Source: a virus (lineage: Duplodnaviria; Heunggongvirae; Uroviricota; Caudoviricetes). From it: a stretch of 6,978 nucleotides of DNA. Below, piece after piece: positions 1-6,978 of this stretch. The position numbers and the translations under genes are program-made. The stretch lies in IMG/VR virus record IMGVR_UViG_2529292719_000015; one strand, written 5' to 3'. How positions within the stretch are numbered: the first letter of the stretch is position 1; each line of letters starts with the position of its first letter. The notes beneath the pieces are model-generated. The model was not told the origin of the DNA. It saw only the letters and a program-made list of their open reading frames with translations, and did not search any database.

Positions 1-365
1 CTAAATCACGTCAGCGCTGGCTGTTTTACGCGTATGACAGGATACGGAGGACAGTTGTGGCGCACGTTTTCGGTGAACGCACTCTGGCCACACTGGCGCG
101 TCTTCTGAGCCTGCTGTCGGCCTTTGAGGTCGTGGTATGGATGACGGATGGCTGGCCGCTGTATGAATCACGCCTGAAGGGAAAGCTGCACGTTATCAGC
201 AAGCGTTACACTCAGCGCATTGAGCGACATAATCTGAATCTGAGACAACATCTGGCAAGGCTGGGACGGAAGTCACTGTCGTTCTCAAAATCGGTGGAGC
301 TGCATGACAAGGTCATCGGGCATTATCTGAACATAAAACACTATCAGTAAGTTGGAGTCACTACC
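1..365 (+). mobile_element. IS1 right-hand portion (insB 3' end to right inverted repeat)
   Basis: Ends at 343-365 with ATCAGTAAGTTGGAGTCACTACC, which matches the IS1 right terminal repeat (canonical ATCAATAAGTTGGAGTCATTACC as recalled). Carries the insB C-terminal reading frame. Positions 1-26 are identical to 6953-6978. Confidence 0.93.
3..350 (+). CDS. insB: IS1 transposase InsB, C-terminal part (5' end lies in the IS1 portion at the window end)
   Basis: Frame is open from position 3 ([12 protein letters not shown]...) to the stop at 348-350. Translation ...[21 protein letters not shown]...[70 protein letters not shown] matches the IS1 InsB C-terminus. The M at 57 in the ORF track is an internal GTG codon, not the real start. 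Confidence 0.9.
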
Positions 366-2902: not shown

Positions 2903-2917
2903 AAAGCGCCATGTGAA

Positions 2918-3119
2918 TGTAGGTCGCATTCGGCACTTATTGTCGGATGCGATGCTTGCGCATCTTATCCGACCTACGAATCGCATCGAATCTGTAGGCC
3001 AGATAAGGCATTTTCGCAGCATCCGGCACTTATTGTCGGATGCGATGCTTGCGCATCTTATCCGACCTACAAATCGCATCGAACCGTAGACCGGATAAGG
3101 CGTTTACGCCGCATCCGGC
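2918..3119. repeat. REP/BIME cluster between convergent ybhJ and ybhC
   Basis: Four full REP-like palindromic units in alternating orientation (about 2942-2977, 2994-3027, 3035-3070, 3086-3119) plus a partial unit at about 2918-2936. A ~93-bp block (CGGCACTTATTGTCGGATGCGATGCTTGCGCATCTTATCCGACCTAC...) is tandemly duplicated with a few mismatches. Confidence 0.85.
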
Positions 3120-3135
3120 AAATAGTTAATTGCTC

Positions 3136-4454: not shown

Positions 4455-4560
4455 CGTTGAAGCCTGCTTTTTTATACTAAGTTGGCATTATAAAAAAGCA
4501 TTGCTTATCAATTTGTTGCAACGAACAGGTCACTATCAGTCAAAATAAAATCATTATTTG
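4455..4560. other. Lambda attL (B-O-P'): bacterial B arm, 15-bp common core, phage P' arm with IHF H' and Int arm-type sites
   Basis: B arm CCGTTGAAGCCT, then core GCTTTTTTATACTAA at 4466-4480, then P' arm GTTGGCATTATAAAAAAGCATTGCTTATCAATTTGTTGCAACGAACAGGTCACTATCAGTCAAAATAAAATCATTATTTG. IHF-like ATCAATTTGTTG at about 4504-4518. Arm-type repeats AGGTCACTAT, CAGTCAAAAT, AAATCATTAT at about 4527-4557. The int stop codon lies inside the P' arm, as in lambda. Confidence 0.92.
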
Positions 4561-5624
4561 ATTTCAATTTTGTCCCACTCCCTGCCTCTGTCATCACGAT
4601 ACTGTGATGCCATGGTGTCCGACTTATGCCCGAGAAGATGTTGAGCAAACTTATCGCTTATCTGCTTCTCATAGAGTCTTGCAGACAAACTGCGCAACTC
4701 GTGAAAGGTAGGCGGATCCCCTTCGAAGGAAAGACCTGATGCTTTTCGTGCGCGCATAAAATACCTTGATACTGTGCCGGATGAAAGCGGTTCGCGACGA
4801 GTAGATGCAATTATGGTTTCTCCGCCAAGAATCTCTTTGCATTTATCAAGTGTTTCCTTCATTGATATTCCGAGAGCATCAACATGCAATACTGTTGGGA
4901 TGGCAATTTTTACGCCTGTTTTGCTTTGCTCGACATAAAGATATCCATCTACGATATCAGACCACTTCATTTCGCATAAATCACCAACTCGTTGCCCGGT
5001 AACAACAGCCAGTTCCATTGCAAGTCTGAGCCAACATGGTGATGATTCTGCTGCTTGATAAATTTTCAGGTATTCGTCAGCCGTAAGTCTTGATCTCCTT
5101 ACCTCTGATTTTGCTGCGCGAGTGGCAGCGACAGGGGTTGTTGTTATATGGCCTTCAGCTATTGCCTCTCGGAATGCATCGCTCAGTGTTGATCTGATTA
5201 ACTTGGCTGACGCCGCCTTGCCCTCGTCTATGTATCCATTGAGCATTGCCGCAATTTCTTTTGTGGTGATGTCTTCAAGTGGAGCATCAGGCAGACCCCT
5301 CCTTATTGCTTTAATTTTGCTCATGTAATTTATGAGTGTCTTCTGCTTGATTCCTCTGCTGGCCAGGATTTTTTCGTAGCGATCAAGCCATGAATGTAAC
5401 GTAACGGAATTATCACTGTTGATTCTCGCTGTCAGAGGCTTGTGTTTGTGTCCTGAAAATAACTCAATGTTGGCCTGTATAGCTTCAGTGATTGCGATTC
5501 GCCTGTCTCTGCCTAATCCAAACTCTTTACCCGTCCTTGGGTCCCTGTAGCAGTAATATCCATTGTTTCTTATATAAAGGTTAGGGGGTAAATCCCGGCG
5601 CTCATGACTTCGCCTTCTTCCCAT
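4554..5624 (-). CDS. int: Lambda-type tyrosine integrase Int
   Basis: 356-aa ORF (MGRRRSHERRDLPPNLYIRNNGYYCYRDPRTGKEFGLGRDRR...GREWDKIEIK) is near-identical to phage lambda Int as recalled. It overlaps xis by 23 bp and ends in the P' arm. Confidence 0.95.
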   Translation of the reverse strand: MGRRRSHERRDLPPNLYIRNNGYYCYRDPRTGKEFGLGRDRRIAITEAIQANIELFSGHKHKPLTARINSDNSVTLHSWLDRYEKILASRGIKQKTLINYMSKIKAIRRGLPDAPLEDITTKEIAAMLNGYIDEGKAASAKLIRSTLSDAFREAIAEGHITTTPVAATRAAKSEVRRSRLTADEYLKIYQAAESSPCWLRLAMELAVVTGQRVGDLCEMKWSDIVDGYLYVEQSKTGVKIAIPTVLHVDALGISMKETLDKCKEILGGETIIASTRREPLSSGTVSRYFMRARKASGLSFEGDPPTFHELRSLSARLYEKQISDKFAQHLLGHKSDTMASQYRDDRGREWDKIEIK

Positions 5625-5820
5625 TTCTGATCCTCTTCAAAAGGCTACCTGTTACTGGTCGATTTAAGTCAACCTTTACCGCTGATTCGTGGAACAGATA
5701 CTCTCTTCCATCCTTAACCGGAGGAGGGAATATCCTGCACTCGCGTACCCATCGACGAACTGTTTCAAGGCTTCTTGGGCGTCGCTGGCGTGCGTTCCAC
5801 TCCTGAAGTGTCAAGTACAT
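5602..5820 (-). CDS. xis: Lambda excisionase Xis
   Basis: 72-aa ORF MYLTLQEWNARQRRPRSLETVRRWVRECRIFPPPVKDGREYLFHESAVKVDLNRPVTGSLLKRIRNGKKAKS matches lambda Xis. 23-bp overlap with the int start. Confidence 0.95.
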   Translation of the reverse strand: MYLTLQEWNARQRRPRSLETVRRWVRECRIFPPPVKDGREYLFHESAVKVDLNRPVTGSLLKRIRNGKKAKS

Positions 5821-5832
5821 CGCAAAGTCTCC

Positions 5833-5846
5833 GCAATTACACGCAA
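5833..5846 (-). promoter_or_regulatory. cII-binding TTGC-N6-TTGC element of the pI (int) promoter
   Basis: The minus strand reads TTGCGTGTAATTGC immediately upstream of the xis ATG, the arrangement known for lambda pI. cII itself is not encoded in this window. Confidence 0.65.
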
Positions 5847-5847
5847 G

Positions 5848-5868
5848 AAAAAACCGCCATCAGGCGGC
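5848..5868 (-). terminator. Candidate intrinsic terminator between the orf55-like gene and xis
   Basis: The minus strand reads CCGCC-TGAT-GGCGG followed by TTTTTTCTT. The stem is short (5-6 bp) and overlaps the orf55 stop codon. Confidence 0.45.
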
Positions 5869-6027
5869 TTGGTGTTCTTTCAGTTCTTCAATTCGAATAT
5901 TGGTTACGTCTGCATGTGCTATCTGCGCCCATATCATCCAGTGGTTATAACAGTCGTTGATGTTCTCTGCTTCGATAACCCTGTTGAATGGCTCTCCATT
6001 CCATTCACCTGTGACTCGGAAGTGCAT
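5860..6027 (-). CDS. Small hypothetical protein, lambda orf55-like (55 aa)
   Basis: ATG at 6025-6027 (minus) and stop at 5860-5862, translated by hand as MHFRVTGEWNGEPFNRVIEAENINDCYNHWMIWAQIAHADVTNIRIEELKEHQAA. Position and length match the 55-codon ORF next to xis in the lambda genome as recalled. No clear Shine-Dalgarno seen. Confidence 0.5.
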   Translation of the reverse strand: MHFRVTGEWNGEPFNRVIEAENINDCYNHWMIWAQIAHADVTNIRIEELKEHQAA

Positions 6028-6038
6028 TTATCATCTCC

Positions 6039-6066
6039 ATAAAACAAAACTCGCCGTAGCGAGTTC
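6039..6066 (-). terminator. Intrinsic terminator downstream of the 142-aa orphan gene
   Basis: The minus strand reads AACTCGC-TACG-GCGAGTT (7-bp stem) followed by TTGTTTTAT, about 45 nt after the gene's stop codon. Confidence 0.6.
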
Positions 6067-6110
6067 AGATATAATTTCCACCAAAGGCAGTAGTTGCTTG
6101 ATGCTAAGAA

Positions 6111-6539
6111 TTATTCAATATCTATTCCTGTAATATCTTTTATCTTTTTCCTTGCAAAGCCTTTTGCTAGTGATTTTGAAACACTCATAAGTGTACTAAT
6201 TCCCTCATCCTTAAAGTTTGTTTTTATAGCTTGCCAGACATCCTTTTGACGTAAGTCAGCAATAAAATCATGCCCTCTTGCTGTCAACCTCAGTGGTACT
6301 TCGATCCAACTATATCCAACACCTTCCCCTAACGCTTTGGACAATATATGATCGAACCCAGGTTTTCCATCAACCCTGACTATTAATTCGTAGTCACATA
6401 ATAATCGCATATGGAAAATAAAATCTTGGTCATATCTATTAAAGCCATTATCCTCTAGTTCACTAAGCATCGTGTCAGGGCCACGAGTTTTTTCGAATGC
6501 GATAAGTAGATCTTTTAGATATTGCTGGTCTAATTTCAT
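6111..6539 (-). CDS. Hypothetical protein of unknown function (142 aa), AT-rich accessory gene in the prophage pL-operon region
   Basis: ATG at 6537-6539 (minus), preceded by GGAGG with 5-nt spacing. Stop at 6111-6113. Translation MKLDQQYLKDLLIAFEKTRGPDTMLSELEDNGFNRYDQDFIFHMRLLCDYELIVRVDGKPGFDHILSKALGEGVGYSWIEVPLRLTARGHDFIADLRQKDVWQAIKTNFKDEGISTLMSVSKSLAKGFARKKIKDITGIDIE. The ORF track's longer 150-aa version starts at a TTG inside the IS1 terminal repeat and is not credible. No family recognised by eye. Confidence 0.7.
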   Translation of the reverse strand: MKLDQQYLKDLLIAFEKTRGPDTMLSELEDNGFNRYDQDFIFHMRLLCDYELIVRVDGKPGFDHILSKALGEGVGYSWIEVPLRLTARGHDFIADLRQKDVWQAIKTNFKDEGISTLMSVSKSLAKGFARKKIKDITGIDIE

Positions 6540-6604
6540 TGCCGCCTCCGGTGATGCTGCCAACTTACTGATTTAGTGTATGATGGTGTTTTTGAGGTGC
6601 TCCA

Positions 6605-6880
6605 GTGGCTTCTGTTTCTATCAGCTGTCCCTCCTGTTCAGCTACTGACGGGGTGGTGCGTAACGGCAAAAGCACCGCCGGACATCAGCGCTATCTCTGC
6701 TCTCACTGCCGTAAAACATGGCAACTGCAGTTCACTTACACCGCTTCTCAACCCGGTACGCACCAGAAAATCATTGATATGGCCATGAATGGCGTTGGAT
6801 GCCGGGCAACTGCCCGCATTATGGGCGTTGGCCTCAACACGGTTTTACGTCACTTAAAAAACTCAGGCCGCAGTCGGTAA
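6605..6880 (+). CDS. insA: IS1 InsA (transposition regulator / N-terminal part of the InsAB' transposase)
   Basis: 91-aa [46 protein letters not shown]...[10 protein letters not shown] with a CxxC...CxxC zinc-finger pattern, matching IS1 InsA. Confidence 0.93.
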
Positions 6881-6978
6881 CCTCGCGCATACAACCGGGC
6901 AGTGATGTGATTGTCTGCGCGGAAATGGACGAACAGTGGGGCTACGTCGGTGCTAAATCACGTCAGCGCTGGCTGTTT
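6856..6978 (+). CDS. insB: IS1 insB reading frame, 5' part, reached by -1 frameshift at the A6C motif (continues at window positions 3-350)
   Basis: AAAAAAC at 6856-6862 is the known IS1 slippery site. The -1 frame is open from 6778 to the window end (…[42 protein letters not shown]) and is in phase with the InsB frame at the window start. Confidence 0.8.

Follow-up and report, generated by a model that had tools for sequence, protein, structure and literature searches.

A DUF2513-family gene in the ea8.5 slot of an IS1-cut lambda-type prophage: a most likely silent copy of a predicted winged-helix module of temperate phages

The subject of this study is a 142-aa gene (positions 6111–6539, minus strand) in a 6,978-nucleotide (nt) stretch of viral DNA (IMG/VR record IMGVR_UViG_2529292719_000015), the whole of which we call the window. 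The explanation that we favour, with a probability of about 0.45, is that the gene encodes a stand-alone winged-helix binding module of temperate phages, which is carried in a self-contained cassette, is probably conflict-related and is inactive in this copy. Within this explanation the identity and the fold of the protein are near-certain. Its most likely role would be in conflict, between phages or between phage and host and of the exclusion or defence type, where it would serve as a stand-alone module for sensing or regulation; the protein would act by binding and not by catalysis.

A previous sequence-only reading of the window, made without database searches, had presented the gene as an orphan of no recognisable family, and this has to be given up. 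The protein matches Pfam DUF2513 (PF10711) with 42.5 bits against a cut-off of 29.6 (E = 8.5e-11; residues 2–115 on profile positions 1–100 of 100) and phrog_585 with E = 2.2e-34 (residues 1–135 on profile positions 1–127 of 128), and G63D is its sole difference from RefSeq WP_000762731.1, named 'DUF2513 domain-containing protein'. The motifs of the family (N-terminal MKxDxxYLKxLL..FE, FxFHMRLL and PLRLTxxGHDF) are all present, and the invariant columns of a 70-sequence alignment are retained, save that the near-invariant G63 is D here. None of the NCBIfam models matches the protein. As judged from these matches, the gene is a member of a catalogued, functionally uncharacterised family and not an orphan. 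The family has no assigned function, so the protein has not turned out to belong to a well-characterised one, and in related prophages the gene is intact and conserved rather than decayed.

At a coverage of at least 80% the gene is found in 168 of 5,426 complete Escherichia coli genomes and in one sequenced phage, Chlobot, and the window copy has the length and genomic position seen in these. It matches the family over its full length and departs from it by G63D and by IS1 in place of the native upstream region, with no structural difference. Roughly 6–7% of the ~2,570 genomes that carry the adjoining orf55 segment have DUF2513 as the occupant of the slot. Beyond E. coli, there are 99 close homologues of ~140 aa in Enterobacterales, and an exhaustive profile search gave 1,505 clusters (50% identity) at E ≤ 1e-3, nearly all of them stand-alone proteins of ~135 aa. 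Between genera the proportion of nonsynonymous differences (pN) is 0.11–0.28 while that of synonymous differences (pS) is saturated at 0.65–0.94, and because of this pattern the protein is taken to be under strong purifying selection. The G63D substitution is a single-base difference from the common allele (window position 6351, codon 63). Position 63 is Gly in at least 90% of homologues, and in a few it is naturally Asp. The exact allele is already public in four NCBI protein accessions and seven contigs, and it is absent from all 25 complete E. coli genomes in the list of best matches.

The gene is real and intact, was acquired horizontally and occupies the accessory slot of ea8.5 in a lambda-type prophage. 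In the mechanical list of open reading frames (ORFs) its longest form (6111–6563, minus strand, 150 aa) begins at a TTG and runs into IS1; the ATG at 6539 gives 142 aa (429 nt) and is the start used by RefSeq for the identical gene elsewhere. The compact gene that the sequence-only reading had described is thus present, together with its strong Shine-Dalgarno (SD) sequence GGAGG (6545–6549, minus strand), which stands 5 nt before the ATG and of which GGAG is kept in all close homologues. Horizontal acquisition, proposed from an AT-richness above that of ybhJ and ybhC, agrees with a GC content of 0.361 (0.287 at third codon positions, GC3) versus 0.515 in ybhJ, 0.533 in ybhC and 0.452 in int. 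DNA homology to phage lambda covers window 5860–6075 (lambda 29118–29333), spanning orf55 (lambdap35) and a downstream hairpin, and ends 40 nt short of the ea8.5 stop codon; the gene therefore sits exactly in the ea8.5 slot, where it had been placed before. The hairpin had been described as the gene's own terminator, and only half of this stands. An intrinsic-terminator-like structure with a U-tract is present (6039–6066, minus strand; stem-loop from 6066 to 6047, GAACTCGC-TACG-GCGAGTTT, then TGTTTTAT) and is flagged by a terminator scan, which found six such sites in 5600–6978 versus 1.3 expected from shuffles. Because the structure lies within the segment common to phage lambda (lambda 29305–29333), however, on this homology the hairpin at 6047–6066 is the lambda-shared boundary at the downstream edge of the slot and belongs to the lambda backbone, not to the gene. 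The gene for the lambda protein Ea8.5 occupies the same slot, between the ea22-side genes and orf55-xis-int, with the same hairpin at its downstream edge; the two proteins are small and non-essential, and neither has an assigned function. They differ in length (93 versus 142 aa) and in fold class, a fused homeodomain/zinc-finger fold being reported for Ea8.5, and BLASTP detects no sequence similarity between them (E = 8.4), so that the earlier statement that the protein is not Ea8.5 is upheld.

Modelled from the single sequence, the protein gave an unusable AlphaFold prediction (predicted local distance difference test, pLDDT, 48), and we therefore used the model from the 70-sequence alignment (pLDDT 93.2, predicted template modelling score 0.84). 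Its helices span residues 5–17, 25–30 and 38–49, then 87–97, 99–108 and 114–137, with a four-stranded wing at 53–85. The predicted winged helix-turn-helix (wHTH) core comprises residues 1–98 and carries a long variable insert in the wing (~56–82); there are three C-terminal helices. With a three-helix bundle and a beta-hairpin wing in a confident model, and with matches to solved wHTH proteins, it is very probable that this is a winged-helix binding protein. The Foldseek matches are solely generic ones of the MarR/PadR/TubR type (E of at least 0.07, template modelling score about 0.4, identity 9–20%). Among viral structures Foldseek returned uncharacterised proteins only, and searches of the PDB by sequence, with the single protein and with the family profile, gave nothing meaningful. 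As far as a predicted fold can be compared, the protein differs from MarR, PadR, HxlR and TubR in its long variable wing insert (~56–82) and its acidic core. The wing tip (about 64–81) and residues 17–37 are the most variable parts, and the third helix is the most conserved. This pattern does not resemble that of a classical operator-reading helix and would at least allow for a surface on the modelled wing that binds a protein or a ligand. The idea that the two invariant histidines, H43 and H90, form a catalytic or metal site was dropped, because the fused homologues described below carry Y or Q there.

Close homologues (at least 60% identity) occupy differing prophage positions. In E. coli and in phage Chlobot this is the ea8.5 slot; in Citrobacter it is the nin region, with a dATP/dGTP pyrophosphohydrolase gene on one side and dinI on the other; in Serratia the gene adjoins an exonuclease gene near int; in Pectobacterium it is the sole gene on its strand in an integrase-bearing island; and in epsilon15-like prophages of Cronobacter it stands between the last early gene (phrog_536) and terS. 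More distant homologues are often found directly upstream of terminase genes. In all seven close contexts (E. coli and six other enterobacterial genera) the ORF is preceded by the same ~60-nt block, which consists of GGCTGGCA, 17 nt, TATAAA or TATAGT, 3–5 nt, the 12-bp palindrome GTGACATGTCAC, GGAG and the ATG. Similarity between the contexts starts at CTGGCA, the −35-like hexamer, and the promoter-like core, CTGGCA-N17-TATAAA/TATAGT, often includes an extended −10 motif, TGn. With synonymous sites in the neighbouring ORF saturated, these conserved non-coding blocks are a phylogenetic footprint. The block would be a sigma-70 promoter (−35 cTGgCA, 17-nt spacer, −10 TATAAa/TATAgT), with the palindrome at about +1 as a site for some dimeric factor, and the cassette would have a transcript of its own, which is probably made in the lysogen. 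The Serratia version (CTGGCA-17-TATAGT) was called promoter-like by the scan tool. A terminator-like hairpin follows the ORF in five of eight contexts (E. coli, Cronobacter, Serratia liquefaciens, Enterobacter mori and Serratia quinivorans).

In E. coli, Cronobacter and Yersinia the block forms the 3' end of phrog_536, the gene upstream, and encodes ...GWHETKLMI*, and the E. coli −10 overlaps the stop codon of this preceding gene; in Enterobacter, Citrobacter, Serratia and Pectobacterium the gene is gone and only a ~35-nt remnant of its 3' end is left. Phages ZX5 and TL-2011b and a prophage of Citrobacter murliniae, which have no DUF2513 gene, keep phrog_536, the palindrome and a terminator, with ~20–40 nt between, and are without the 13–14 nt that contain TATAAA. 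In ZX5 and TL-2011b phrog_536 and terS are adjacent, and in the Cronobacter prophages the DUF2513 gene intervenes. In these sequence comparisons this is the filled-site/empty-site pattern of a moron. Morons are add-on genes made up of promoter, ORF and terminator, described for HK97/lambda-type phages. The DUF2513 gene resembles them in its deviant composition (GC 36% versus 45–53% in its neighbours), in the terminator-like hairpin in those five contexts, in its insertion between genes that are adjacent in related phages, in the promoter-like block that travels with the ORF and in the replacement of ea8.5 in E. coli. It differs in that the promoter here is putative, with an imperfect −10 in E. 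coli, and in that the window copy is wholly without one. Taken together, the alignments make a self-contained, promoter-bearing cassette a reasonably probable interpretation. At sites free of DUF2513, in epsilon15-like phages and a Citrobacter prophage, the perfect palindrome GTGACATGTCAC is found directly after phrog_536 (L002 7690–7703; L056 5978–5991; L069 and L070 ~1840–1855; L008 2241–2254, L numbers denoting fetched loci). Between the palindrome and terS, ZX5 and TL-2011b have an 8-codon mini-ORF and a terminator, an arrangement that may represent an empty site or else what a deletion has left behind. A second subfamily (~47–50% identity; L008, L010, L014–L017) has a different conserved block ~70 nt upstream of the homologues. 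The extended −10-like TGnGATAAT in this block, and a CCCY...RGGG pairing by which the SD would be sequestered, suggest a promoter of its own and translational control.

Could the protein then simply be an ordinary dimeric repressor of the MarR/PadR kind, which binds GTGACATGTCAC where its own transcript starts, with perhaps a few phage or host operators besides, and plays no part in conflict? This is the strongest alternative, and we consider it unlikely. All the fold matches are winged-helix regulators, the C-terminal helices of the model could make a PadR-like dimer interface, and the perfect 12-bp palindrome between the −10-like hexamer and the SD is kept despite saturated synonymous sites. 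Pfam MarR, PadR and HxlR, however, do not match the protein even at E ≤ 1, its acidic core and hydrophobic third helix do not favour such a repressor, and the alternative leaves the fusions to TIR and AbiTi-like modules unexplained. The palindrome itself is kept in phages that have no DUF2513 gene and therefore cannot be an operator for DUF2513 alone, and in the fetched loci its 10-bp core has just one extra exact copy (in L059). Regulation by the protein of its own promoter via the palindrome, also conceivable within the explanation that we favour, is on the same sequence evidence doubtful. Other uses of this site were judged by inspecting the aligned sequences and rejected: a LexA box over the palindrome (CTGT-N8-ACGG is found in E. 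coli and Enterobacter mori only), a sigma-54 promoter (TGGCACG is present and the −12 GC element is missing) and an RNA hairpin (the stem has only 4–5 bp, and variants are one-sided, not compensatory).

The clues to function come from fused homologues, which we surveyed in the best 150 of ~1,500 cluster representatives. About seven of these have C-terminal extensions: a CAP12/Pycsar-type TIR (P0159; PADLOC PDC-S35, PycTIR), a ThsB-like TIR (P0267; PDC-S66, 2e-57), a PDC-S60-like module (P0229) and, in P0145, P0223 and P0235, an AbiTi-like module with a hydrophobic tail at the end. The fusions share the whole of the window protein (residues 1–133 or 1–136) at 38–42% identity. The PADLOC models match only the C-terminal modules of the fusions, and DUF2513 lies outside them, so from these alignments DUF2513 seems to be one among several N-terminal input domains that can take each other's place. 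In relation to single-protein candidates for abortive infection or defence (PDC-S35, PDC-S66, PDC-S60, AbiTi and ThsB-like TIR), the likeness is that the six fusions named carry a homologue of the whole protein in front, and the difference is that the window protein has no effector module and no PADLOC match. When the 140 neighbours nearest to homologues in 47 species are pooled, subunits of type I restriction-modification systems, helicases and other PADLOC matches turn up repeatedly, in a few loci; genes for prophage lysis and for terminase are recurrent too. Several distant DUF2513-like genes (25–30% identity; L025, L026, L029, L032, L034 and others) stand directly beside genes for proteins of ~900–1,000 aa. 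In one island (L073) no more than 3 kb holds both a stand-alone DUF2513 gene and a DUF2513-PDC-S60 fusion, with an HTH/ImmA-like pair next to them.

It is because of the TIR, AbiTi-like and PDC-S60-like fusions, and of the type I restriction-modification genes beside distant relatives, that a role in binding and conflict is proposed. We regard a conflict-related role as tentative, at not quite even odds. A more specific version, in which DUF2513 would be a phage-sensing or ligand-binding input domain common to prophage morons and single-protein abortive-infection effectors (TIR, AbiTi-like, PDC-S60), with the stand-alone copies as effector-less sensors, is speculative and rather improbable. 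Several observations weigh against the explanation that we favour. The fusions are only ~7 of the best 150 cluster representatives and most are on short metagenomic contigs, none of the defence families in PADLOC-DB v2 matches the 142-aa protein at E ≤ 1, and our literature search found no paper on DUF2513/PF10711 or phrog_585, on their function or otherwise. As to binding, the wHTH core is acidic (net charge −5 over residues 1–98, pI 5.9), and the 'recognition' (third) helix, FIFHMRLL, is mostly hydrophobic and is the most conserved segment of the family; both features are atypical for a sequence-specific DNA binder. As to the cassette, the E. coli −10 (TATAAA) lacks the final T at −7 and was not called by the scan, the palindrome follows phrog_536 also in phages and a prophage with no DUF2513 at the site, and the E. 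coli and Cronobacter genes begin only 28 nt behind the preceding early gene, so that read-through from the early operon is possible.

In the next alternative the protein is an anti-defence decoy. It would be an effector-less copy of the input domain of DUF2513-TIR or DUF2513-AbiTi-type proteins, made early in infection, which either competes for the trigger or forms inactive mixed oligomers. The homology of residues 1–133 to the N-terminal part of the fusion proteins is full-length, and most prophage copies lie within early operons and are co-directional with them (the pL side, the nin region and the end of the early-right operon). The anti-restriction and anti-RecBCD genes of lambda (Ral, Gam) lie in such locations. 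However, the gene has a promoter-like block that is private and conserved, and in Pectobacterium it stands alone on the opposite strand; both fit expression in the lysogen better than early lytic expression. Where fused and stand-alone forms share a host, the one instance is the L073 island, which can be read either way. We consider a decoy quite improbable.

Very improbable is that the gene is one half of a two-gene module (toxin-antitoxin-like or regulator-target) with the upstream 112-aa phrog_536 protein, orphaned here by IS1: each of the 144 E. coli genomes that lack the IS1 junction still has the native one with the 112-aa gene, the same pair with a 28-nt gap is found in Cronobacter and an adjacent pair in Yersinia (the partner being 47–60% identical across these genera), but only one of 58 phage records with phrog_536 has DUF2513, the close homologues in Enterobacter, Citrobacter, Serratia and Pectobacterium keep no more of the partner than the ~35-nt remnant, and the linkage is accounted for by inheritance as a block and by the promoter-like block lying within the partner's 3' end. 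Obligate pairing is rejected, each gene being mostly found without the other, and the conserved partner whose existence the sequence-only reading had proposed to check did not emerge from clustering of neighbours in 48 species either. The phrog_536 protein (L002 7709–8047, minus strand; L056 5635–5973) is labelled 'transcriptional regulator' in PHROGs and has no Pfam match; its C-terminus carries an invariant Cys-rich motif, CGKCG...C.C..G.S.CW, its N-terminus is basic and conserved, and in epsilon15/phiV10-type phages its gene is the last early gene before terS.

The explanation that we favour also holds that the window copy is inactive, and this rests on the IS1 junction. In an alignment with an intact prophage and with strain E66 the left inverted repeat of IS1 starts at 6550, directly against the SD, and the insertion point is exactly between the palindrome GTGACATGTCAC and the SD. 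The left 429 nt of IS1 (6550–6978, plus strand; left inverted repeat, IRL, 6550–6572, and the start of insA) take the place of the native upstream region, and lost with it are the promoter-like block, the palindrome, the phrog_536 gene and the early-operon context. The scan of 5600–6978 found no promoter-like site on the minus strand; the match in the IS1 end is only IS1's own inward promoter. The gene is thus cut off from everything upstream and would depend on fortuitous transcription, as had been supposed, and because its promoter-like block is lost and IS1 has no outward promoter-like site, the window copy, as far as its sequence can tell, is most likely silent. Among the 168 E. coli genomes with the gene, 144 have the native upstream junction and the other 24 the IS1 junction of the window; those listed with the IS1 junction are O6:H16 strains of the enterotoxigenic E. 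coli type. Beyond IS1 such genomes have a lipocalin fragment, ybgA and DLP12- and Rac-type genes, and these unrelated fragments mean that the rest of the prophage is gone or rearranged. Of 172 native-junction sites, 11 are on plasmids. The 191-kb E. coli plasmid pECO-cbb3 (L074, NZ_CP026206.1 126325–136465) has the same int-xis-orf55-DUF2513-phrog_536 segment, broken by IS110 and IS5. In strain E66 (L003 7213–7910) an extra IS1 lies between orf55 and the DUF2513 gene, which therefore has IS1 on both sides.

In order, the window contains the right end of an IS1 (1–365, plus strand; the 3' end of insB and the right inverted repeat, IRR, at 343–366), the last 92 nt of ybhI, ybhJ, repetitive extragenic palindromic (REP) elements, ybhC, the att core, int, xis, orf55, the 142-aa gene and the left end of an IS1. 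The lambda att core GCTTTTTTATACTAA (attL; 4466–4480, plus strand) beside ybhC marks the end of a lambda-type prophage at attB, and from its sequence the window is the left end of such a prophage in E. coli, cut by IS1. The downstream neighbour of the 142-aa gene, orf55 (5860–6027, minus strand; lambdap35 homologue, phrog_676), is part of the backbone conserved with lambda. Both IS1 parts point the same way and overlap, with their inverted repeats paired as 6549–6572 and 343–366, and window nt 1–26 are identical to 6953–6978. The longest contig recorded with the exact allele is likewise 6,978 nt; the window is therefore a whole contig of a draft assembly between IS1 copies at both ends. The arrangement is either a composite-transposon-like segment of 6.2 kb or a repeat collapsed in assembly. 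The IS1 at the window start interrupts ybhI ~92 nt before its stop codon (TAA 456–458; stretch 366–458); in strain E66 ybhI has an IS1 at another position and in FDAARGOS_1077 it is intact. Between ybhJ and ybhC there are tandem repeats of the REP or bacterial interspersed mosaic element (BIME) type (2913–3120; units of 65 nt and 35 nt, spacing 92–93 nt), with a match to Rfam naRNA4 (RF02564) at 2997–3067; the Rfam search of the 142-aa gene region gave no match. A second terminator-like hairpin lies at 5851–5870, between orf55 and xis, where the equivalent site in phage HK140 is annotated as a rho-independent terminator.

The sequence of the gene, its family and its RefSeq name are already known. 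What goes beyond existing annotation is the conserved cassette of promoter-like block and palindrome, the occurrence of both filled and empty sites and the fusions to effectors, which are modest leads and concern the family, not the relic copy. The window copy matters little: it is a promoterless relic in an IS1-bracketed prophage stump, and 24 complete E. coli genomes share it. Of more interest is the family, with ~1,500 clusters under strong purifying selection that move between slots with a promoter-like cassette and include TIR and AbiTi-like fusions. If DUF2513 is indeed a sensing domain shared with abortive-infection effectors, the stand-alone copies would be prophage exclusion factors or phage-encoded decoys, and the hypervariable wing (~64–81) would be the recognition surface. 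A role for DUF2513 would inform on a widespread accessory domain of phages and possibly on a family of single-protein defence candidates.

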